Shown in pieces: positions 1 through 18,182 of a stretch of 64,000 bases of DNA. The notes beneath the pieces were generated by a model. It saw only the letters and a list, made by a program, of their open reading frames with translations. It was not told where the DNA came from and made no database searches. This DNA is from an uncultured Eggerthellaceae bacterium. Lineage in GTDB: Bacteria; Actinomycetota; Coriobacteriia; Coriobacteriales; Eggerthellaceae. The stretch spans positions 65,289 to 129,288 of the forward strand of contig CAIFEB010000004.1 in NCBI GenBank assembly GCA_903789375.1. The letters run 5' to 3'. The translations under genes were made by a program, and so were the position numbers. The stretch's first letter is position 1, and every line of letters starts with the position of its first letter.

Positions 1-3000
1 CCTGACGACCAGCTGTACGGCAGCTCTGTCAAGTGGTACGTCACCGCGAACGGCGGCACGGGTACGACGGTGAGCACCTCCGAACAGAGCACGCCGATCA
101 CGCCCGAGATGCCTTCGGCCGATGCGTATCCTCCAATGTACGTCACCGAAGTGTACGCCAACGACGGCACCGGCGAGTACAGTTACTTCGAGGTGTACAA
201 CGCCTCCGACAAGCCGATCAACCTGTCGTACTTCAAGATCTTCTACTACTACAACTACCCCGCCTACACCGCCTCGCAGTCCGGCAAGATTTGGACGCTG
301 TCCGACTTCACCACGTTCCTGCAGCCCGGCGAGACGATGGTTTACTGGCTGGCTAACGACGGCACGACCGTCGACGACTTCAACAATCACTTTGGCACCA
401 ACCTGGAGCTTGGCAAAGACATCGTGCAGGTCAGCTACCCGGGCCTGCATGCCTCCGACAACCGGTGGATCCGCTTCGGCACGTCCGAGGACAACGCGTT
501 CTCGCTCGTCGGCTTCAACACGAAGAGCACCGGCATTTCGAGCAAGGGCACGGCTTTCCAGTACACCTATCCGCGCGGCGCCAACGCGAACGAATCCGTT
601 TCCGTGGACATTGAGAATCCCACGCCCGGCACGGTGAAGGATTGGCAGAAGGCGCCGATTACGGCCAAGTTCAACGGCTATGCCGGCTACCCTGCCGACG
701 ACGGCAAGGCGCCGACGCTTTCCGTCAACACCGAGGAAGGCTTCCCCATTCCTTCGTCGATCGACGAGGGCGACGACCTGAAGGTCATGTACGACACCGA
801 CCTGCTGCTGGGCGCCACCGACGCCGCCCGTCTGAGCTCCTTCAAGGACAACGTCGATCCGAGCAACCCCACGAACTACCCCGGTGGCGCAGAAACGCTC
901 AAGGAACGTCCGTACCTGCTGGGCACCGAGGTGCTGTACAAGCTTGACGACGATACCGAGTGGACCACCGTTCGCCAGAGGACACAATGGCGCTTGGGGC
1001 ACTTCCTCATGCAGATTCCGGCAGACGTGCTGTTCGGTCACGACAAGGTGACGTACAAGGTGCGCGCCTACACGCTCTACGGCATGTCCGAGACCGAGGA
1101 GACGACGGTTCCCATCAACCGCCTGCAGAACAGCACGGACAGCGTTCGCATGAACGTCAACAACGGTGACGTCGTTTCCGGAACGACCACGATAACAGCC
1201 AACAACGGTGGCGACAATACTGCAACATCGATATCCGTCGACGGCACCCCTGTCTCAGATTCTCGCCTGTCGCTTGAAAACGGCGCGTACTTCCTGGTCA
1301 AGACGACCGGCATGGACAGCTACTTCAAAGACGCCGTCACCGCGCCGTTCGGAGACGACCCGCGCGACATCCTGACCATCATGGGCAACTGGTGCGAATC
1401 GCCGACATCGCGCGCCATCCACGTGGACAACAAGTACTTCACCTACGATTCCGCCACCGATTCGTACAAGATGGACCTGACCATCTGGGCTGGCGGCACG
1501 GGCACGCCGTTCGAGGAGATCTACGACGAGGTGGCAACGGCCAACCACGAGGATTTCAACGTCAGCGGCCTGCAGCTCGCGCTCGAGAACGGCAAGACCT
1601 ATCTTCCGACGTCAATCTCCCCGGACAACGCCAAGACGAACACGTCCACGGCTCTCGACGCCGTCCACACCATCGGCGACAGCGCGGGCATGGTTCCGCA
1701 TCTGACCGCCTCATTCAGCATTCCCGCCTCCGACGCCACGGCGCAGGGCGCTACCGTGGACACCACGAAGCTCTCCGATGGCGAGCACACCATCACCGCC
1801 ACCTCCAACGACAAGACCACGACGGCCAAGATTATCGTGGACAACACGGCCCCAACCATCGACTTCGGTATCGACGACACGACGACCTACTACAAGCCGT
1901 TCACGCTTGATGCCGGCAAGATTGCATTCGATGCCAACGGCATCAAGTCCCTCGACGTCACGCTCGACGGCGAGACGATTCAGCTGCCCGACACCATCGA
2001 TCCGCACGACCTCGCCGAAGGCACCCACACGCTCAAGGCCATCGCAATCGACAACGCCGGCAACCTGGCGCAGAGCTCGGTCACTTTCGCGACCGGCATC
2101 GACGACCCGGATGTCTCCAAGAACGCGGCGGGCGACGTCGAGTCCGCGAGCGCCGACCTGTCGGTCGACGTAGACGGCCCGGCCAACGTGACGTTCTACC
2201 AAGGCCGCCAGCTGACCACCGACAACGGCGGCATCGTCGCCGCCTCGGGCCAGGCGCAGACGACCAGCTCGGGCGCCACGGGCGAATCCCCCTATCAGCT
2301 GTTCAAGCTGAACAGCGGCGACGTATCGGCTGACGACGCGCTTCAGATCAACTGGAACGGCACGGCAACCGCCGGCGACAGCGACCACCCGCTGACGCTG
2401 TTCGCCTACAACCAGGCGACGAGCGCATGGGATTCCGTGGCGACGGCCGACAGCACCGACGCCCTGTCCGCCCGAATCGCCGGCACCTACGCCAAAGACG
2501 GCGCAGTCTACCTGGCTGTTCAGCGTGTGACCGCAGACACCGCCTGCACCGCCCCGGCTCCCACGGCCGACATGTTCGGCGCTTCCAACGCACCTGCCGC
2601 CACGACGCTCGACGCCAGCGCGCCCCTCTCGTCCTGGGACGGCACGAGCGCGCCCGACAACTACGACTTCTGCTTCGCATGGGAGACCGACACCCAGTAC
2701 TACGCCGAGAGCTTCCCGTACCATTACACCAACATGAACCAGTGGATCGTGGACAACGCTTCCAACCTGGACATCCGCTACGTCCTGCACACCGGCGACA
2801 TCGTAGATGACTTCGATATGACCGGCGAGTGGATCAACGCCGACAACGCGATGAAGATCTTCGACGACGCGGGCATGCCCTACGGCGTCCTGGGCGGCAA
2901 CCACGACGTGAGCGCCGGCATGGAGGGCTACGGCAACTACTGGAAGTATTTCGGCGCCGACCGCTTCACCAACAAGAGCTACTACGGCGGCACGTACAAG

Positions 3001-4167
3001 AACAACCTCGGCCACTACGACCTGTTGACCGAAGACGGGCAGGACTTCATCGTCCTGTACATGAGCTGGGACATCTACACCGACGAGATCAACTGGATGA
3101 ACCAGGTGCTCGCCCAGTACCCCGACCGCAAGGCGATCATCGCGCTGCACCGCTACACCAACGTCGTTGCGTCCGACCAGATGCTCGACTACACCGGCCT
3201 GCTGCTGCAGAACGAGGTCGTGGCGAAGAACCCCAACGTGTTCTGCGTTCTGAACGGCCACTACCACGGCTCGAGCATCCAGACCGACTCGTTCGACGAT
3301 GATGGCGATGGCGTGGCGGAGCGCACCGTGTACCAGATCGCCACGGACTACCAGTCCGACCCTGAGGGCGGCTCTGAGTACATCAAGTTCTTGTACTTCG
3401 ACCTGCAGAACAACAAGATCTACATGAACTCGTACTCGCCGTACCGCAACGACTACAACTACTACGACGCGGCGAAGCTCTCCTCCTACGGCGCCGGCAC
3501 CCATGCGGCCAACCAGGACATCATGGAGCTCGACGTGCCGTTCAACACCGATGCGAAGAGCCTGACCACGAGCTCGATTTCTGCTGATGTTCAGACCGAT
3601 GATGTCATCGGCACGGTCACGGACGCCAACGGCGCCGCCTCGTACACCTGGACGGGCCTCGATCCCGATACCCAGTACGGCTGGTACGCCGAGGTGACCA
3701 ACGACAACGCCGGCGTGACGCGCACCCCGGTGACGCTGTTCACAACCGACGTCAAGTCGACGGACAACCCCGGCACCGGCGACAATCCGGGGACGGGCGA
3801 TAACGCCGGCTCCGGCAACAACCCGGGCGCGGGCACGGGTGACAATCCCGGTACCAGCACCGGCGACAACAACGGCGCCACCGACGGCAAGACCGAAGAC
3901 GAGACCAACGGCGCCTCCGGTTCCGATAACGCCGCCGATCCCAATGCCGACGGCTCCAGCGCCGGAACGGACAACGCGGGCACCGGCTCCGCGACGAGCA
4001 ATACCGGCGCGACCTCGGGCTCGAAGTCGACGGCCCCGCAGACCGGTGACGCAACGCTGCCCATCGCGGGCACCGCGGGCCTCGCAGCCCTCGTGGCCGG
4101 CGCCGTTGCAGCGTGGCGCGTCCGCGCCCGCCGCGCGGTCGAGCAGGGACTGCACGTTCGCAAGTAG
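1..4167 (+). CDS. Cell-wall-anchored surface protein, 5'-partial, with calcineurin-like metallophosphoesterase domain, Ig-like repeats, a Thr/Gly/Asn/Pro-rich stalk and a C-terminal APQTG sorting signal + TM + Arg tail
   Basis: ORF 70..4167 is open in the same frame back to base 1 with no stop, and the start at 70 would lack a signal peptide, so the gene continues upstream of the window. Metallophosphoesterase motifs LHTGDIVDD...GNHD are present. The C-terminus reads ...APQTGDATLPIAGTAGLAALVAGAVAAWRVRARR, an xPxTG-type sortase motif followed by a hydrophobic segment and basic tail. Confidence 0.8.
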   Translation, partial: PDDQLYGSSVKWYVTANGGTGTTVSTSEQSTPITPEMPSADAYPPMYVTEVYANDGTGEYSYFEVYNASDKPINLSYFKIFYYYNYPAYTASQSGKIWTLSDFTTFLQPGETMVYWLANDGTTVDDFNNHFGTNLELGKDIVQVSYPGLHASDNRWIRFGTSEDNAFSLVGFNTKSTGISSKGTAFQYTYPRGANANESVSVDIENPTPGTVKDWQKAPITAKFNGYAGYPADDGKAPTLSVNTEEGFPIPSSIDEGDDLKVMYDTDLLLGATDAARLSSFKDNVDPSNPTNYPGGAETLKERPYLLGTEVLYKLDDDTEWTTVRQRTQWRLGHFLMQIPADVLFGHDKVTYKVRAYTLYGMSETEETTVPINRLQNSTDSVRMNVNNGDVVSGTTTITANNGGDNTATSISVDGTPVSDSRLSLENGAYFLVKTTGMDSYFKDAVTAPFGDDPRDILTIMGNWCESPTSRAIHVDNKYFTYDSATDSYKMDLTIWAGGTGTPFEEIYDEVATANHEDFNVSGLQLALENGKTYLPTSISPDNAKTNTSTALDAVHTIGDSAGMVPHLTASFSIPASDATAQGATVDTTKLSDGEHTITATSNDKTTTAKIIVDNTAPTIDFGIDDTTTYYKPFTLDAGKIAFDANGIKSLDVTLDGETIQLPDTIDPHDLAEGTHTLKAIAIDNAGNLAQSSVTFATGIDDPDVSKNAAGDVESASADLSVDVDGPANVTFYQGRQLTTDNGGIVAASGQAQTTSSGATGESPYQLFKLNSGDVSADDALQINWNGTATAGDSDHPLTLFAYNQATSAWDSVATADSTDALSARIAGTYAKDGAVYLAVQRVTADTACTAPAPTADMFGASNAPAATTLDASAPLSSWDGTSAPDNYDFCFAWETDTQYYAESFPYHYTNMNQWIVDNASNLDIRYVLHTGDIVDDFDMTGEWINADNAMKIFDDAGMPYGVLGGNHDVSAGMEGYGNYWKYFGADRFTNKSYYGGTYKNNLGHYDLLTEDGQDFIVLYMSWDIYTDEINWMNQVLAQYPDRKAIIALHRYTNVVASDQMLDYTGLLLQNEVVAKNPNVFCVLNGHYHGSSIQTDSFDDDGDGVAERTVYQIATDYQSDPEGGSEYIKFLYFDLQNNKIYMNSYSPYRNDYNYYDAAKLSSYGAGTHAANQDIMELDVPFNTDAKSLTTSSISADVQTDDVIGTVTDANGAASYTWTGLDPDTQYGWYAEVTNDNAGVTRTPVTLFTTDVKSTDNPGTGDNPGTGDNAGSGNNPGAGTGDNPGTSTGDNNGATDGKTEDETNGASGSDNAADPNADGSSAGTDNAGTGSATSNTGATSGSKSTAPQTGDATLPIAGTAGLAALVAGAVAAWRVRARRAVEQGLHVRK

Positions 4168-5465: not shown

Positions 5466-5705
5466 GCTTCGGCCCTCGCTTTCAAGGAGCTGAGCGATGA
5501 CGAGGTTCCCGCGTTCGCCCGCGCGCTCGACCGCATCGATCGCGTGCTCAAGGATACCTGCAACATCCCCGAACATCCCCATGGCCCGGCGGGGCACGGC
5601 CGCCCCGAAGGACACGCCCGCCCCGAAGGCAATCACGGCCACGGTGAGCATGGCGACCACAGCCACGACGAGGGACATCATGGACATCCCCATGGCGCGG
5701 AATAG
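5466..5705 (+). CDS. Possible small His-rich metal-binding protein (start codon unresolved; alternative Met/Ala/Val-rich reading on the minus strand)
   Basis: Open + frame encodes ...AFKELSDDEVPAFARALDRIDRVLKDTCNIPEHPHGPAGHGRPEGHARPEGNHGHGEHGDHSHDEGHHGHPHGAE*. There is no in-frame ATG; candidates are GTG 5544 or CTG 5490, and AAGGAG at 5484. The reverse complement reads MGMSMMSLVVAVVAML... (Met-rich, TM-like), so the coding strand is ambiguous. Confidence 0.25.
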   Translation, partial: ASALAFKELSDDEVPAFARALDRIDRVLKDTCNIPEHPHGPAGHGRPEGHARPEGNHGHGEHGDHSHDEGHHGHPHGAE

Positions 5706-5778
5706 TATTCATATTGTTACCACACGCTAACTTTCAACGAACGACATCCGATTGCGGGCAACCGCGGAGAGGACAGAG

Positions 5779-6582
5779 ATGGCTAAGAAAGTCAAACTGT
5801 CAGCCAAGATAGCGCTCGACATCATCATGTTCGTGGCGCTGATTTTCCTGTACAAGGCGAAGGTGCTCACGCTCACCTACCACGAGGTCATGGGACTGGG
5901 AATCGCACTGTTCTTCCTGGTTCACTGCCTGTTCAACCGCACGTGGATCGTGGACACGGGCAAGAAGCTGTTCAGCAAATCGACGCCGGCGCGCACCAAA
6001 TTCGGCTATTGGATCACGATTCTGCTCGTCATCGATTTCCTGCTCATCATCGTCAGCGGCATATTCATCTCGAAAATCATCTTCCGCGACGCCATCTCGA
6101 GCCTGAACCTGGGCGACACGAGCATCTTCCGGAACATCCATCTGTTCTGCTCCGTCCTGTCGCTGATACTCATCGGCATCCACGTGGGCATCTACTGGCC
6201 GATGGTGAAGGGTTTCTTCGCCAAGCGCATCAACCTGCCCAAGCGCGTCGGCACGACGCTTGCCTACGTCCTTCTGGCCGTCATTGTGGCAACAGGCGTC
6301 TACTCCCCGCCGACGTCGAGCTTCACGAACTGGCTCACCTCCCCGTTCGTGCAGCAGACCGGACACGATCACGGTCACGGCGACCAAACAGCATCGGGAG
6401 ACGCAACCGTGAGCGCATCCGCAAGCGCATCGGCTTCGAGCTCCGCGAAGTCAGGCCACGGCGACGCCGCCTCCGTTGAATCGACGTCAGATGCTTCGAA
6501 TGCGAAGAGCGCCAACGCGAGCAACCACGGCAACGTCATCACGCCGCAGAACATTATCACGACGTTCTACCAGTACACGTAG
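5779..6582 (+). CDS. DUF4405-like polytopic membrane protein (cytochrome b561-like fold family) with Ser/Ala/His-rich C-terminal tail; frame continues past an in-frame TAG to 6681
   Basis: RBS GGAGAGG, 6 nt, then ATG 5779. Multiple TM helices and the motif LVHCLFNRTWI. TAG at 6580-6582 is followed in frame by IVGLFAVITFYIDRALRKRAKAKHDAVKVSEA* (a TM segment plus basic tail). Confidence 0.6.
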   Translation: MAKKVKLSAKIALDIIMFVALIFLYKAKVLTLTYHEVMGLGIALFFLVHCLFNRTWIVDTGKKLFSKSTPARTKFGYWITILLVIDFLLIIVSGIFISKIIFRDAISSLNLGDTSIFRNIHLFCSVLSLILIGIHVGIYWPMVKGFFAKRINLPKRVGTTLAYVLLAVIVATGVYSPPTSSFTNWLTSPFVQQTGHDHGHGDQTASGDATVSASASASASSSAKSGHGDAASVESTSDASNAKSANASNHGNVITPQNIITTFYQYT

Positions 6583-6903
6583 ATCGTCGGTTTGTTCGCC
6601 GTCATCACGTTCTACATCGACCGCGCGCTGCGCAAGCGCGCGAAGGCGAAGCATGACGCCGTAAAGGTGAGCGAAGCGTAGGTCGCCGATTCCCATGCGG
6701 CGAAAGCAGACTCTCTCTCGCGGAGCGCGCGGGGCGATTGCTCCGCGCGCTCCATTCGTTTGCGCTCTTCGCCTCACGACCCGCACTGGCGTCCCTCGTG
6801 CAAATGCGGAGCGCCCGGACTACCCGAGCGCTCCGCTTTTTATCTATCCACGAGGGGTGCTGACCCCTCGCGTATCTTCGTCAGCGTGTCCGTGCCAGCG
6901 AAT

Positions 6904-9762
6904 CTACGCCATCGTGGCCTCGTAGCCGGCATCGACGACGGCGTCGATGAGCGCCTGATCGTCGACATCGGAGGAGAGTTCCACGACCGCGTTCTTGTCG
7001 TCGAGGCTCACGCGCGCCTTCTCGACGCCCTCCACGCCCTCGAGCGCCTTCGTCACATGGGCGACGCAGTGGTTGCACATCATGCCCTCAACGTTGATCG
7101 TCTTCTCCATTGCAGCTTCCTTTCGTGTCGGTTCGTTCGTATCCAAAGCCGCCCCTGCGGCTCCGTTACCCTGAGAATGTGCCGCGGCGGCGACACCCGT
7201 AGGTTCGCCCGCAGCGCCTGCACCAGCGGTGCTTGCGTCCTGGGCACCAGCGTCAATGGCGGTCGCGCCCTGGGCACCAGCGCCCGCGCCAGCTGCGCCC
7301 GCTCCGGCAGCGTTCGCCTGCGAAGCCTTCTGCTGGCGCACAACCGTATCGGTCGAGCGCGCCTCCGCAGCAATCTGCGGCGCGCCTGCCTCGGATGCCA
7401 CCTGCTTCCCCTCGCTCTCGGTCGCGAAGGTCGACTCCTCGTCGGCGCCCGTCATGAAACGCGGCTTCCATCCGCGCAGACGCAGCGCGTTGCCGACGAC
7501 GGTGACCGAGCTTACGCTCATTGCCGCCGCGCCGATCATCGGGTTGATCTGCAGGCCCGCCCACGCGAACACGCCGGCTGCGATGGGGATGCAGATGACG
7601 TTGTAGATGAGCGCCCAGAACAGGTTCTGGCGGATGGTGCGCAGCGTGCGCTTGGACAGCTGCACGGCCGCGGGCACGTCCATCAGATCGGAGCGCATGA
7701 GCACGATGTCGGCCGACTCGATGGCGATGTCGGTGCCGGCTCCGATCGCGATGCCGACGTCGGCAGTGGCGAGCGCCGGCGCGTCGTTGATGCCGTCGCC
7801 GACCATCGCGACCGCGCCCCGCTCGGACAGGCGCTTGACCTCGGTCGCCTTGTCGCCCGGCAGCACGCCGGCGATAACCTCGTCGACGCCCGCCTTGCGT
7901 TGGATGGCCGCAGCTGTGCGCTCGTTGTCCCCGGTCAGCATGACCGTGTGGATGCCCATCGCGCGCAGCTCGCTGATGGCGCGGGCGCTCGTGGGCTTGA
8001 TGGCGTCGGCCACGGCGATGGCGCCGAGGAACCGTCCGCCCCGCGCGAAGAACAAAGGCGTCGCGCCGTCGTCGGCGTACCGTTGCGCCCGTTCTGCCGC
8101 GTCGGCAACCGGTACGTGCGCGTTTTCCATCATGCGTGCATTGCCGCACAGGACCGTTTCCCCGTCAACCTGGGCGCGCACGCCTTCGCCCGGCACCTGC
8201 TCGAACGCGTCGACGGCAACCTGGGCAGCCGGGATTCCGTGCTCGTCCGCATAGGACACGATAGCCTGTGCAAGCGGGTGCTCGGAACGCTGCTCCACCG
8301 CCGCAGCGAGCGCGACCAGATCCTTCGCATCTGCGCCTTCCGCCGGCGCAACCTCGACCACGCCGGGCTTGCCCTCGGTGATCGTGCCCGTCTTGTCGAA
8401 GACGACGCTCTTCACGCCGCCCGCGACCTCGAGCGATTCGGCAGACTTGATGAGGATGCCGTGCGTCGCGCCGCGTCCCGTTCCCACCATGATGGCCGTG
8501 GGCGTCGCCAGTCCGAGCGCGCACGGGCACGAGATGACGAGCACGCTGATGGCGAAGTTCAGAGCGCTCTGGAACGGAGCGGCGACCAGTAGCCAGATGA
8601 AGAACACGAGGATGGCCACGCCGATGACGGCCGGCACGAACACGCCGGCGATCTTGTCAGCCGTGTTCTGGATGGGCGCCTTTGAGCTCGTCGCTTCGTC
8701 GACCAGAGCGATGATGCCGGACAGCACCGTGTCGTCGCCCGTGCGCGTGACCTTCATGGTGAAGTAGCCGGCGCGGTTGATGGTGGCGCCCGTCACGGCG
8801 TCGCCGGGCGCCTTGTCGGCCGGGACGCTCTCGCCCGTGATGGCGGATTCGTCGATGGACGCTGCGCCCTCGAGCACGATGCCGTCGACCGGCACGCCCT
8901 CGCCCGCACGGACGACCAGCGTATCGCCCACCTGCACCTGCTCGACGGGCACGATGACCTCGTTTTCGCCGACGAGCTTCGTGGCGGTCTTGGGCGCCAG
9001 GTCCATGAGCTTGCCGATGGCGTCGGTCGTGCGGCCCTTCGCGCGCGCCTCGAAGTACTTGCCGAGCGTGATGAGCGTCAAGATCATGCCGGCGGAGTCG
9101 AAGTACAGCCCCATGAACGCGGTGTGCGCCCCGTCAAGGTCGCCCACGCCCATGAGCGCCGCCATGACGAACATCTGGTAGACGCTGTAGCCCGCCGAAG
9201 CCGTGGCGCCCAGAGCGATGAGCGAGTCCATGTTGGGCGCGCCGTGGAACAGGCTTTTGAACCCGTTCGAGAAGAACTTGAAGTCGACGAAGATGATGGG
9301 CGCCACGAGCAGAAGCTCAGTGAGCGCGGTGACCATCATGTTCTGGTGGCCCAGAAACACCGCCGGCAGCGGCCAGTTGAACATATGGCCCATGGCCAGG
9401 TAGAACAGCGGCACGCAGAACACGATGGACAGGATCAGGCGCATGCGCATGTGCTTCTCGGCGGCGATGGCGCGCTTGGTCGATTCCTCGTGCGCGAGCT
9501 GGGCGGTGGACTTGCCCGACGTCTGCTGGGTCTTCGCGCGGGGCGCCGCGCCGTAGCCGGCTTTGTCGACCGCGGCGGCGATTTGGTCGTTCACACGGGC
9601 GACGTCGGAATCGGACAGCCCGGGCGCGTACTCCACCTCCATGCTGTTCTTCAGAAGGTTGACCGCCACATCGGCGACGCCCTCCACCCCGCGCGTGGTC
9701 TTGTCCACGCGCGACGAGCAGGCCGCGCACGACATGCCGGTCACATCGAATGTCTGCTTCAT
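6904..9762 (-). CDS. copA: Copper-translocating P1B-type ATPase CopA with N-terminal HMA domain and in-frame C-terminal CopZ-like HMA domain
   Basis: N-terminal GMSCAACSSRV (HMA domain), CPC motif VISCPCALGLATP, DKTGT and GDGINDAP. Ala/Gly-rich linker, then MEKTINVEGMMCNHC...; an internal RBS GAAAGGAAG sits 5 nt before that ATG (7109). Confidence 0.9.
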   Translation of the reverse strand: MKQTFDVTGMSCAACSSRVDKTTRGVEGVADVAVNLLKNSMEVEYAPGLSDSDVARVNDQIAAAVDKAGYGAAPRAKTQQTSGKSTAQLAHEESTKRAIAAEKHMRMRLILSIVFCVPLFYLAMGHMFNWPLPAVFLGHQNMMVTALTELLLVAPIIFVDFKFFSNGFKSLFHGAPNMDSLIALGATASAGYSVYQMFVMAALMGVGDLDGAHTAFMGLYFDSAGMILTLITLGKYFEARAKGRTTDAIGKLMDLAPKTATKLVGENEVIVPVEQVQVGDTLVVRAGEGVPVDGIVLEGAASIDESAITGESVPADKAPGDAVTGATINRAGYFTMKVTRTGDDTVLSGIIALVDEATSSKAPIQNTADKIAGVFVPAVIGVAILVFFIWLLVAAPFQSALNFAISVLVISCPCALGLATPTAIMVGTGRGATHGILIKSAESLEVAGGVKSVVFDKTGTITEGKPGVVEVAPAEGADAKDLVALAAAVEQRSEHPLAQAIVSYADEHGIPAAQVAVDAFEQVPGEGVRAQVDGETVLCGNARMMENAHVPVADAAERAQRYADDGATPLFFARGGRFLGAIAVADAIKPTSARAISELRAMGIHTVMLTGDNERTAAAIQRKAGVDEVIAGVLPGDKATEVKRLSERGAVAMVGDGINDAPALATADVGIAIGAGTDIAIESADIVLMRSDLMDVPAAVQLSKRTLRTIRQNLFWALIYNVICIPIAAGVFAWAGLQINPMIGAAAMSVSSVTVVGNALRLRGWKPRFMTGADEESTFATESEGKQVASEAGAPQIAAEARSTDTVVRQQKASQANAAGAGAAGAGAGAQGATAIDAGAQDASTAGAGAAGEPTGVAAAAHSQGNGAAGAALDTNEPTRKEAAMEKTINVEGMMCNHCVAHVTKALEGVEGVEKARVSLDDKNAVVELSSDVDDQALIDAVVDAGYEATMA

Positions 9763-9817
9763 AACCGTTCCTATCCGGGCTTTGGGAAAGCCCCGTCACG
9801 TGCCGATTCGCCCGCGC

Positions 9818-10333
9818 CTACGAGCGGAACCGTTTGATCAGGTCCATCACCTCGTCGACGGCCTCAAGGTCGCCGGCCTGGATCTTCTCAACGACGCACG
9901 TCTCCAGGTGGTTCTTCAAGATGATGTCGGAAACGCGCCGCACGGCCGATTCTGCGGCCGCGAGCTGGATGAGCACGTCGCCGCAGTAGCGGTTGTCGTC
10001 GAGCATGTTCTTGACGCCGTTGAGCTGGCCGATCACCCGGTTGAGCCGCTTGTTCAGGTCGCGCTGCAGCTCCGCGCTGCGCTCGGTCTTCTTGTAGCGG
10101 CAGCCGCATCCGCACGCCTCGCCGGCGGCTTCCGCAGACGCGCCGCCGCCCGCTTCGGCGGAATCCTGCGCGGTCTCAGCGATGCTGGAGCAGGCACACG
10201 CGCTTGCCGCGGCGGTTTCGGCGGGCCGCTCGCCTTCGCAAGCTTCCGCCTGCGCGGCCGAGCCAGCTTGCGCGGCCGTCTCGGCCTGCGCGTCAACCGT
10301 CCCCTTCGAATTTTGGGTCAAGGTGTCTGCCAT
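9818..10333 (-). CDS. csoR: CsoR/RcnR-family copper-sensing repressor with Cys-rich low-complexity N-terminal extension
   Basis: C-terminal DUF156 core ...RYCGDVLIQLAAAESAV...NHLETC (Cys and His-x3-Cys ligands). N-terminal ~85 aa are Ala/Glu-rich with CACSS and CGCGC motifs. RBS GAGGAAG precedes ATG 10333. Lies immediately upstream of copA. Confidence 0.8.
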   Translation of the reverse strand: MADTLTQNSKGTVDAQAETAAQAGSAAQAEACEGERPAETAAASACACSSIAETAQDSAEAGGGASAEAAGEACGCGCRYKKTERSAELQRDLNKRLNRVIGQLNGVKNMLDDNRYCGDVLIQLAAAESAVRRVSDIILKNHLETCVVEKIQAGDLEAVDEVMDLIKRFRS

Positions 10334-10359
10334 GCGACGCTTCCTCACATCCGTACCTT

Positions 10360-10376
10360 ATACCCCCTGGAGGTAT
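10360..10376. promoter_or_regulatory. CsoR-type operator (GC-rich pseudo-palindrome ATACCCCCTGGAGGTAT)
   Basis: Inverted repeat TACCCCC-N-GGAGGTA 27 nt upstream of the csoR start. Matches the known TACCC-N-GGGTA architecture of CsoR operators. Confidence 0.6.
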
Positions 10377-10394
10377 CTTACGGGCGTCAGTATA

Positions 10395-10411
10395 GTACCC
10401 CCCGGGGGTAT
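10395..10411. promoter_or_regulatory. Second CsoR-type operator (GTACCCCCCGGGGGTAT, near-perfect palindrome)
   Basis: Second copy of the same operator 19 nt further upstream. Tandem operators are typical of csoR-copA promoters. Confidence 0.6.
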
Positions 10412-10528
10412 GTCAACGGCATGGGCGGTTTTATTGGAAAAAGTTCGCCGCTTCATACCTTTGACGAGCTCCCGACTACATAACTTCCAACTATTTGAAC
10501 TGAGCTCCCCGCTCGACCGACCAAATTT

Positions 10529-10633
10529 CCGGCTCCATCAACCGGGTTACGGCTCCATCAATCGAGCTTCCAGCTCCATCAATTGGACTTACAGCTCCAT
10601 CGGCCGAGCTTCCGGCTCCATTAACTCGGCTTC
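10529..10633. repeat. Tandem direct repeat, 21-bp unit x5 (consensus cGGCTCCATCAAyyGrGcTtC)
   Basis: Five contiguous 21-bp units read directly. No spacers, so this is not a CRISPR array. Confidence 0.8.
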
Positions 10634-10645
10634 CAACCCATGAGC

Positions 10646-10764
10646 CACCCGAGCCGCGAGCGCGAAGCCGTCCAGATTGCGGGCGCAAGCCGTCCGAGCC
10701 GCGTGCGCGAAGCCGTCTAGAACGCAGTCGCAAGTCACCCGAGCCGGGAGCGAGAAGCCTCGCC
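10646..10764. repeat. Tandem direct repeat, ~45-bp unit x2.6 (cacccgagccgcgagcgcgaagccgtc...)
   Basis: Units start at 10646, 10691 and 10736; read directly. Confidence 0.7.
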
Positions 10765-16505: not shown

Positions 16506-18182
16506 ATGGCAGAAGACGTATTCGCTCAACGTCTGAATGAGGCGATGGCCGCACGGGGCGCCAAGCAGGTCGATGTGCTGCACGCCGCGCAGAACCAGGG
16601 CCGCAAGCTAGGGAAAAGCCAGCTCAGCCAGTACGTGAGCGGCAAGACCACGCCGCGCGCCGACACGATGGCCCTGCTCGCCGAGCTGCTCGGCGTCGAT
16701 GCCGCCTGGCTTTCCGGCGCATCGAACGCAGGCGGAGCGCAGGGCACGGTCGCAGCAGAAGCGACCGCAGGTGGCGCATCCACCTCAGACGCAGGCGCAA
16801 ACGCAGCCCAAGCAGGTGAGCCGTCGCGCACCGCCCGCGCCCGATCCCACTCCAACAGCAAGCGCGCCGCAGCCACAAGCTGCGCAAACTCCTCTTCGAA
16901 CACGAAAACCACGACCCCGTCTTCCGCATCCACCCCTTCTCCCGACTCTCCGAAAGGAACGCCCATGCGCACCTTCAGCAAATCAAGCAAGCTCGACAAC
17001 GTCCTCTACGACGTCCGCGGTCCCGTCGTCGACGAGGCCAACCGCATGGAGGAGAGCGGCACGCACGTTCTCAAATTGAACATCGGCAACCCCGCGACGT
17101 TCGGATTCCGCACGCCCGACGAGGTCGTCTACGACATGGCGCGCCAGCTGCCCGAGTGCGAGGGGTATTCCGCGAGCCGCGGCCTGTTCTCGGCGCGCAA
17201 GGCAATCATGCAGTATGCCCAGGTCAAAGGTCTGCCGAACGTCACCATCGACGACGTGTACACCGGCAACGGCGTAAGCGAGCTCATCAACCTGTGCATG
17301 TCAGCGCTGCTCGACAACGGCGACGAGATTCTGATTCCCTCCCCCGACTACCCGCTGTGGACCGCGTGCGCGACGCTCGCAGGCGGCACGCCCGTGCACT
17401 ACATCTGCGACGAGCAGGCCGACTGGTACCCCGACCTGGCCGACATGGAGAGCAAGATCACCGACCGCACGAAGGCCCTGGTCATCATCAACCCGAACAA
17501 CCCCACCGGCGCGCTGTACCCGCGCGAGGTGCTTGAACAGATCGTCGAGATCGCGCGGCGCCACCAGCTGATGATCTTCTCCGACGAAATCTACGACCGC
17601 CTGGTCATGAGCGGCGAAGAGCACGTGAGCATCGCGTCGCTCGCGCCCGACCTGTTCTGCGTCACGTTCAGCGGACTTTCGAAATCGCATATGATCGCCG
17701 GCTACCGCATCGGATGGATGGTGCTGTCGGGTAACAAACGCGCAGCTCAGGATTACATTCTGGGATTGAACATGCTGTCGAACATGCGCCTGTGTTCAAA
17801 CGTCCCCGCGCAGTCCATCGTCCAGACGGCGCTCGGCGGGCACCAGAGCGTGAAGAGCTACATCGTGCCCGGCGGCCGCGTGTACGAGCAGTGCGAGTTT
17901 GTGTACAACGCGCTCAACAACATCCCCGGCATCTCGGTCGTCAAGCCGAAGGCGGCATTCTACATCTTCCCGAAACTCGACGTGAAGAAGTTCAATATCA
18001 CCGACGACGTACAGTTCGCGCTCGACCTGCTGCGCGAAAAGAAGATCCTGATCGTGCAGGGCACCGGGTTCAATTGGGGTCAGCCCGACCACTTCCGCAT
18101 CGTGTACCTGCCGCGCATCGAGCAGCTGTCGGAGGCCATGACGAAGCTCGGCGACTTCTTGAGCACGTACCAACAGCACTAG
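16506..18182 (+). CDS. XRE-family HTH domain fused in frame, via a ~90-aa low-complexity linker, to an AlaA-type class-I PLP aminotransferase
   Basis: N-terminal HTH: QVDVLHAAQNQGRKLGKSQLSQYVSGKTTP...LAELLGVDAAWL. Aminotransferase body starts MRTFSKSSKLDNVLYDVRGPV...LKLNIGNPATFGF (closely resembles E. coli AlaA) and includes an SxSK lysine motif. An internal RBS GAAAGGAA sits 5 nt before the ATG at 16966. Confidence 0.75.
   Translation: MAEDVFAQRLNEAMAARGAKQVDVLHAAQNQGRKLGKSQLSQYVSGKTTPRADTMALLAELLGVDAAWLSGASNAGGAQGTVAAEATAGGASTSDAGANAAQAGEPSRTARARSHSNSKRAAATSCANSSSNTKTTTPSSASTPSPDSPKGTPMRTFSKSSKLDNVLYDVRGPVVDEANRMEESGTHVLKLNIGNPATFGFRTPDEVVYDMARQLPECEGYSASRGLFSARKAIMQYAQVKGLPNVTIDDVYTGNGVSELINLCMSALLDNGDEILIPSPDYPLWTACATLAGGTPVHYICDEQADWYPDLADMESKITDRTKALVIINPNNPTGALYPREVLEQIVEIARRHQLMIFSDEIYDRLVMSGEEHVSIASLAPDLFCVTFSGLSKSHMIAGYRIGWMVLSGNKRAAQDYILGLNMLSNMRLCSNVPAQSIVQTALGGHQSVKSYIVPGGRVYEQCEFVYNALNNIPGISVVKPKAAFYIFPKLDVKKFNITDDVQFALDLLREKKILIVQGTGFNWGQPDHFRIVYLPRIEQLSEAMTKLGDFLSTYQQH

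Follow-up and report, generated by a model that had tools for sequence, protein, structure and literature searches.

The 64-kb stretch of DNA analysed here (the window) comes from an uncultured Eggerthellaceae bacterium (assembly GCA_903789375.1, contig CAIFEB010000004.1, positions 65,289 to 129,288) and carries on its minus strand an open reading frame, copA (6904..9762), whose 952-residue, 98-kDa product is a predicted copper pump that probably shares its gene with a small copper chaperone. The protein runs from an N-terminal HMA domain through an ATPase core and a linker to a C-terminal HMA domain, and it matches the Pfam families E1-E2_ATPase (4.5e-56), Hydrolase (2e-34) and, twice, HMA. 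Its core has the actuator and the phosphorylation/nucleotide domains of a P-type ATPase, with DKTGT456 accompanied by TGE309 and GDGIND655. The signatures of the P1B-1 class are CPC in transmembrane helix 4 (TM4), YN in TM5, MxxSS in TM6 and SEHP in the nucleotide domain. All of them are found in the translation (CPC412, YN720, MSVSS748 and SEHP493), and by these motifs copA is assigned to the P1B-1 type of Cu(I)-exporting ATPases. Its nearest homologues, at 57-98% identity, are heavy-metal P-type ATPases of other Eggerthellaceae (Eggerthella, Gordonibacter, Paraeggerthella and Curtanaerobium). The N-terminal metal-binding domain, of the GMSCAAC type (9547..9762, minus strand), is detected by Pfam HMA and by hmmsearch, which places it at residues 12-83 of the stop-to-stop frame, or about residues 1-72 of the protein. 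Directly upstream and in the same orientation, as in CsoR-regulated cop operons, lies a csoR-type gene for a copper-sensing repressor (9818..10348, minus strand; start codon uncertain; Trns_repr_metal at 1.5e-26 over residues 96-173). The order csoR-copA recurs in relatives, and the two genes probably form one operon.

The unusual part of copA is its 3' end. The last transmembrane helix ends in ...NALRLRGWKPRF (F769) and is followed by an Ala/Gly-rich low-complexity linker of 115 residues (7111..7455, minus strand; 32% A, 15% G), in frame and free of stop codons over its 345 nt. An in-frame ATG (7108..7110, minus strand; Met885) marks the N-terminal edge of the C-terminal HMA domain, and on the mRNA strand it is preceded by an internal Shine-Dalgarno (SD) sequence, GAAAGGAAG (7124..7116; feature 7116..7124, minus strand), and a 5-nt spacer, CTGCA. 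From this ATG a nested CopZ-like frame of 68 codons extends to the copA stop codon (6904..7110 including the stop, minus strand); the same residues are the C-terminal metal-binding domain of full-length CopA. This anatomy can be read directly, and it bears out the original prediction that a complete 68-residue HMA domain sits at the C-terminus of CopA behind an SD sequence and a Met codon 5 nt apart: residues 888-948 match the Pfam HMA profile from end to end (positions 1-62 of 62). Details of that prediction need correction, however. The Met codon had been placed at 7109 and starts one base away, at 7110; the linker had been put at about 110 residues and measures 115; and the statement that CopA normally has no such domain at its C-terminus was too strong, as 117 of the 120 best copA homologues have one.

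The nested product begins MEKTINVEGMMCNHCV... and is a 68-residue, 7.24-kDa protein with an isoelectric point of 4.3 and the metal-binding motif GMMCNHC. AlphaFold2 models it with a pLDDT (predicted local distance difference test) of 86.4 and the elements E2-8, H13-24, E29-36, E40-47, H51-60 and E64-67, so that in the model the internal Met is residue 1 and the fold begins at residue 2. Foldseek aligns the model with CopZ, MerP and the metal-binding domains of ATPases at TM-scores of 0.78-0.87, among them CopZ 6ff2 (0.86) and the CopZ proteins of Bacillus subtilis (2qif, 0.85) and Enterococcus hirae (1cpz, 0.78), and phmmer matches its sequence to 2roe, 1cpz, 6ff2, 2qif and 3fry, the last being the C-terminal domain of Archaeoglobus fulgidus CopA. 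The nested product is thus predicted to be a complete HMA fold like that of the solved CopZ chaperones, with a CxHC motif; it is 40-47% identical to the N-terminal HMA domain of the pump itself. As a separate observation, G-M-M-C-x-H-C, with its extra Met and His (7075..7089 region of the window), is common to C-terminal and CopZ-type domains, and GM[ST]CAAC takes its place in the N-terminal domains of these pumps. A single profile hidden Markov model (HMM) splits the two classes, all but a few C-terminal and CopZ-type domains scoring above 75 bits and N-terminal domains below 60 bits.

One indication that the internal start is used comes from its conservation. Among the 120 homologues the linkers differ in length and sequence, and the residues before the C-terminal domain mostly read x-K-E-x-x-M; exceptions with EKG, EKD, EEE or QE in this place still spell GGAG-like strings in the DNA, and only eight proteins have neither the Met nor KE. 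We extended the comparison to one genome per GTDB species, with a query for HMA domains of the VEGMMCxHC type, and analysed the best 80 of at least 593 confirmed matches, which came from Coriobacteriia, Clostridia (Lachnospiraceae, Oscillospiraceae and Ruminococcaceae), Phascolarctobacterium, Erysipelotrichaceae, Tissierellia and metagenome-assembled genomes of spirochaetes. These species are related, and the counts that follow are not independent events. In all 80 loci a long reading frame upstream, with 745-918 open codons where the contig allows, continues without a shift into the HMA domain, and a start codon (79 ATG, 1 GTG) lies at the start of the domain or 1-3 codons before it. A clear SD sequence is found 4-11 nt upstream of this start in 78 of the loci; the two exceptions (L029 and L053) keep the start codon and have only weak GAAAGAAGA-like purine runs. 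Eggerthella lenta (CP089337.1), for example, has the same csoR-copA locus with the internal site gaAAAGGAGagtaccATG. A scan of metagenomes, seeded with the Met-less clade described below, recovered no further members of that clade and gave matches 38-52% identical, which served as an independent replication set: 48 of 49 distinct fused contexts have an ATG together with an SD energy of -7 or lower, and the remaining one (L098) has neither ATG nor SD.

The manner in which the SD sequence is encoded is more telling than its frequency. Judged by its first G, GGA(G) is in frame 0 at 41 loci, in frame 1 at 32 and in frame 2 at 3, and it is built from codons as different as AAG GAG, AAA GGA GAx, ACG GAG GAA, AAT GGA GGA, TCA GGA GGT, CAA GGA GAA and TTG GAG GAG, with the result that the peptide over the SD may be KE, KGE/KGD, TEE, NGG, SGG, QGE, LEE or ERS. 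When the loci are aligned on the ATG, positions -12 to -9 are purines in 100, 100, 99 and 96% of cases with no three-base periodicity; the linker upstream of -18 carries about 0-0.4 bits per position, and the HMA coding part is codon-periodic as usual. Because the SD sits in different frames, within a purine run without codon periodicity and behind an unconserved linker, selection at this site acts on the nucleotides and not on the peptide, and the changes of frame show repeated remodelling under constraint. The fusion itself is under selection too: the frame is interrupted in none of the 80 species loci and 49 metagenomic contexts, although their linkers vary widely in length and sequence (14-70 residues in relatives where measurable). 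At three loci (L073, L096 and L160) the body of copA is broken by a stop codon or frameshift, and the frame of the terminal HMA domain has survived with its SD and ATG. Assembly errors may account for these loci, or they may be pseudogenes from which the chaperone is still produced.

Measures of initiation potential agree with this picture. We paired the 20 nt upstream of each internal start with the anti-SD sequence, using as controls the 1770 other in-frame ATGs of the same copA genes. In the 80 species the median duplex energy is -9.6 kcal/mol at the internal starts and -3.0 at the control ATGs (Mann-Whitney p = 2.7e-44), and energies of -8 or lower are reached by 95% of the former and 7.6% of the latter. 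The internal SD is also as strong as that of copA itself: medians in the relatives are -9.75 for the internal SD and -9.3 for the best candidate SD of copA's own start, and in the window the two values are -8.7 and -6.9 kcal/mol. The mRNA around the internal ATG is weakly folded, with a mean 50-nt folding energy of -3.5 kcal/mol compared with -13 to -14 in the flanks and a GC content of 0.41 compared with 0.59 (n = 79 for both); in the window the corresponding folding energies are -1.3 to -5.8 at the ATG and -15 to -26 in the linker. By these calculations the internal start lies in an unstructured, AT-enriched pocket of the kind typical of start sites. The locus therefore combines a start codon and a properly spaced SD at a domain boundary, conservation beyond coding constraint and reduced mRNA structure, three features expected of a site of internal initiation.

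Nature has also provided controls. The eight homologues that have neither Met nor KE before the domain belong to an Eggerthellaceae clade, here called Met-less, of which we examined six members (P0003, P0004, P0010, P0011, P0018 and P0028; loci L084-L086 and L169-L171). In all six the fused HMA domain has no ATG and a weaker SD, and the gene order is csoR, copA and then a separate 68-residue HMA gene, copZ, which follows copA at a distance of a few to about 30 nt with an SD of its own, for example tagAAAGGAAGcacaATG. In this clade the tethered and the free role have been separated naturally. Across the 80 SD- and ATG-bearing loci, by comparison, an HMM search of all open reading frames within 4 kb on either side found no stand-alone HMA gene near copA (78 of these loci have at least 300 nt of downstream sequence), and the same search of the 64-kb window found none elsewhere in it. 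A separate copZ thus accompanies 6 of 6 Met-less loci and 0 of 79 loci with SD and ATG (Fisher p = 2e-9, the Met-less six being one clade). That the SD and ATG disappear exactly where a separate copZ exists supports internal initiation. The nested product of the window is 57-59% identical to the separate CopZ of the clade, which is preceded by the same kind of SD, and 51-58% identical to the Met-less fused type, the two ranges overlapping as indicators of the origin of the fused domain. The fused domain of the clade has, in addition, gained a C-terminal tail and a conserved F-P-x-P-P motif before the domain.

Tandem domains offer a second internal comparison. In two loci with two C-terminal HMA domains (L070 and L138), the inner domain has neither a start codon nor an SD (0.7 and -0.5 kcal/mol), whereas the terminal one has both (-9.6 and -9.3). 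Such tandem domains also occur in L038 and in P0022, a CopA of 1036 residues whose second HMA domain follows a linker of only about 10 residues (ERKDST-M) and looks like the recent capture of a downstream copZ. The three relatives that lack a C-terminal HMA domain (P0012, P0014 and P0019; 772-817 residues) were considered as possible split copA/copZ pairs and set aside: their genes have other neighbours, csoR and a downstream HMA gene both being absent, and they are uninformative paralogues or loss variants. Four stand-alone copZ loci (L090, L114, L162 and L165) have no P-type ATPase motif in the flanks covered and are silent on the split state.

We consider it likely, on this comparative evidence, that copA is a dual-output gene, yielding a pump that carries the HMA domain tethered at its C-terminus and, through internal initiation, CopZ in free form. 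The original prediction had posed a fused CopA-CopZ and independent initiation as alternatives, and the comparison supports both together. According to this model, the csoR-copA transcript, under the control of CsoR, would be translated from the copA start into the 98-kDa Cu(I) pump, whose last 68 residues would be tethered by the flexible 115-residue linker. Small (30S) ribosomal subunits would also bind the internal SD and, across its 5-nt spacer, start at the ATG at the domain boundary, so that those 68 residues would also be released on their own, as a diffusible 7.2-kDa Cu(I) chaperone of the CopZ type. Copper would induce both products at once, in proportions fixed by a pair of comparably strong start sites and not by a pair of genes. 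In its free form the chaperone would bind up Cu(I) in the cytosol and pass it to the pump; the role of the tethered copy would be to bind metal or to regulate the pump from its C-terminus, like the corresponding domain of A. fulgidus CopA. We infer initiation at the internal ATG, the activity of the free chaperone and its division of labour with the tethered copy; a free protein that binds Cu(I) and transfers it to the ATPase is suggested by the conserved internal start and by the lack of a separate copZ nearby.

Several points weigh against this proposal. The evidence for the 7-kDa protein is comparative, and full-text searches brought up no literature describing a 7-kDa product, or internal initiation, an internal start codon or an internal ribosome-binding site for copA or CopZ. 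The AT-richness near the ATG is partly due to the Lys/Glu-rich start of the HMA domain. Ribosomes elongating full-length CopA could occlude the internal site. The complementary distribution of copZ is probably a single evolutionary event and is to be counted once, because the six Met-less loci form a single clade; and the absence of copZ covers 4 kb on either side in the relatives and 64 kb in this genome, so that a copZ elsewhere is possible. Finally, isolated metal-binding domains from A. fulgidus, unlike CopZ, are reported to deliver no Cu(I) to the transport sites in vitro (work cited in PMC11970713), and a freed domain is hence not automatically a competent chaperone.

The most serious rival to the dual-output proposal is that copA encodes a plain fusion, in which the C-terminal HMA domain is only tethered or regulatory and the SD and Met are a relic of an ancestral copZ or reflect a preference for certain residues. 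C-terminal metal-binding domains on CopA are indeed known and thought to be regulatory (PMC7558416; PMC11970713), the Met-less clade illustrates that a fused domain can exist without a start site, and the frame kept open everywhere implies that the tethered form is itself selected. We nevertheless regard this explanation as unlikely. A neutral relic would not survive at the edge of a linker that is saturated with change (0-0.4 bits per position, 14 to more than 115 residues), and a motif kept across reading frames and over differing amino acids rules out a constraint on the peptide. Moreover, conservation extends jointly to the ATG, the SD, their spacing and the low structure, and it is the inner tandem domains and the Met-less clade that lack all of these start features. 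A conserved RNA motif within the gene for a polytopic membrane protein could, on the other hand, be a programmed elongation pause, in which pairing with the anti-SD gives time for membrane insertion or for the linker to clear before the HMA domain is made. Pausing mediated by SD sequences is disputed, and a pause needs neither a start codon, present as ATG in 79 of 80 loci 4-11 nt away, nor an unstructured pocket centred on it; it also leaves unexplained why the motif is lost where a separate copZ is present. This we hold to be very improbable.

Hardly more probable, in our judgement, is a free chaperone translated from a short transcript that begins at an internal promoter in the linker. Such a transcript is compatible with the internal SD, which would serve it too, and differential transcript formation has been reported for Escherichia coli copA (Drees et al. 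2017, as cited in PMC7558416). A scan of 6600..10700 returned no sigma-70-like match within the linker or towards the 3' end of copA, its sole match being TTGACA-16-TATACT upstream of csoR (10389..10416, minus strand; a consensus match only). This is weak evidence, the scan being a crude consensus that models high-GC actinobacterial promoters poorly; the linker is in addition unconserved, so that no conserved promoter is visible. A frameshift like that of E. coli was rejected as well: there is no CCCAAAG within the copA reading frame, and the sole one nearby (9780..9786, minus strand) lies upstream of the start at 9762. There remains the idea of an artefactual fusion, in which copA and copZ are really separate and the stop codon between them was lost through an error in sequencing or assembly. 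Only the unusual look of an SD and ATG inside a reading frame speaks for it, and we give it practically no credence. The stop codon that the original prediction proposed to look for in orthologues is missing from every relative: the frame runs uninterrupted through a 98%-identical protein of a different source, 117 of 120 homologues, the 80 species loci and the 49 metagenomic contexts, and in the window itself the last helix and the HMA domain are joined by a stop-free, in-frame linker. The comparative data refute a missing stop.

The dual-output proposal joins an outcome and a mechanism that are each known from elsewhere. In E. coli, a single gene is reported to give a pump and a chaperone, CopA and CopA(Z), through programmed -1 ribosomal frameshifting (Meydan et al. 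2017 and Drees et al. 2017, as cited in PMC7558416). The proposal resembles that system in that a single copA would yield the pump and a small HMA chaperone identical to one of the pump's own domains, both co-regulated by copper. It differs in that E. coli releases the N-terminal domain MBD1 by frameshifting and termination at CCCAAAG, whereas here the domain is C-terminal and the proposed device is an internal SD and ATG. The closest mechanistic precedent is E. coli arcB, in which translation also begins internally, just where the C-terminal domain starts; this yields a diffusible ArcB-C, as established by western blot and mutation, and the site is conserved in several species (bioRxiv 10.1101/520783). 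Like arcB, copA encodes a membrane protein and has an SD-preceded, conserved internal start exactly at the boundary of its C-terminal domain; unlike ArcB-C, which belongs to a phosphorelay and whose product has been shown, copA concerns metal trafficking, and its evidence is comparative, with conservation across several phyla. A. fulgidus CopA provides the parallel for the tethered form: it is also a P1B-1 ATPase with an N-terminal HMA domain, and its CxxC HMA domain after the last helix (3fry; sequence match E = 4e-6) is regarded as regulatory (PMC7558416; PMC11970713; Mandal & Arguello 2003, via PMC11970713). In contrast to the present copA, the A. fulgidus domain is described only as a tethered regulatory one, a separate CopZ is present and no internal start is reported. 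The free form has its parallel in Firmicute CopZ (B. subtilis 2qif/1k0v, E. hirae 1cpz and CopZ 6ff2; TM-scores 0.78-0.86), although those proteins come from separate, stop-bounded reading frames adjoining copA, and here copA and the nested frame form one uninterrupted frame. Neither copper nor CopA is mentioned in a 2026 review of N-terminal proteoforms in bacteria (PMC13515050). A pump and chaperone from one gene and an in-frame internal start are thus both known, and it is their combination, and its breadth across phyla, that appears to be undescribed.

The same architecture is found once more in the window, as the original prediction had noted, in a gene for a fusion of an HTH_3 domain to an AlaA aminotransferase (16506..18182, plus strand; open reading frame and domain matches) with a low-complexity linker between the two. 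At the start of the enzyme domain lies an SD, GAAAGGAA (16952..16959), 5 nt ahead of an ATG (16965..16967). The 120 closest homologues, of 497-610 residues and from Coriobacteriia and Bifidobacterium, keep the Met in almost all cases and have KG, EG, RS, GG or GS 2-3 residues before it. At two loci with RS (L167 and L168) these residues are encoded AGGAGC, and the DNA reads caAGGAGCaccccATG and tcAAGGAGCccccagATG. The SD thus seems to be conserved at the nucleotide level, with the same frame-independent signature as in copA, and internal initiation probably yields the free AlaA enzyme as well. The suggestion that this fusion architecture is recurrent in the genome is supported accordingly.

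If the internal start of copA is used, the copper chaperone of much of the human and animal gut microbiota, including Eggerthella, Gordonibacter, Olsenella and many Lachnospiraceae, Oscillospiraceae and Ruminococcaceae, is invisible to annotation. We lean, by a small margin of belief, towards the broader claim that gut and anaerobic Firmicutes and Actinobacteria include hundreds of species that seem to lack a copZ gene because their chaperone is hidden in copA, and that fusions routinely keep the ribosome-binding site of their downstream part. Inventories that score these organisms as CopZ-less would then be wrong, and many annotated fusion proteins, with HTH::AlaA as an example, would be dual-output genes that yield fused and free forms. 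There would also be a second, independent way to obtain pump and chaperone from one gene beside the frameshift of E. coli, and a second mechanism would suggest that hard-wiring the co-expression and ratio of the two brings a strong and recurrent advantage. The same 68 residues, tethered and free, together with a sister clade in which the roles are split, make an attractive natural system for comparing both states. Furthermore, the frame-independent SD signature amounts to a simple comparative test that can be used genome-wide to find hidden proteoforms, and it also picked up HTH::AlaA.

A few further features of the neighbourhood deserve mention. The CsoR reading frame has an N-terminal extension of about 90 residues, rich in Ala, Glu and Cys (ACEGE...ASACACSS...GEACGCGC), ahead of the Trns_repr_metal domain, and its Cys clusters might bind metal. 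On the other side of copA, and convergent with it, lies a gene for a DUF4405/cytochrome-b561-like membrane protein with a C-terminal tail rich in His, Ser and Ala (5752..6582, plus strand), itself preceded by a His-rich reading frame of 53 residues (5544..5705, plus strand; ...HGHGEHGDHSHDEGHHGHPHG) that has no Pfam match; both may be metal-related cop neighbours. Between the convergent DUF4405 gene and copA is a perfect GC-rich 14-bp hairpin (6722..6753; GGAGCGCGCGGGGC-GATT-GCTCCGCGCGCTCC), which lacks a clear T-tract and may be a bidirectional terminator. Farther away, 70..4167 (plus strand) encodes a protein of 1365 residues with Lamin-tail and calcineurin-like phosphoesterase domains and a long low-complexity region of Gly, Asn, Pro and Thr. 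Its C-terminus, with APQTG, a hydrophobic stretch and a basic tail, resembles a sortase signal, and the protein is probably a surface enzyme anchored to the cell wall.

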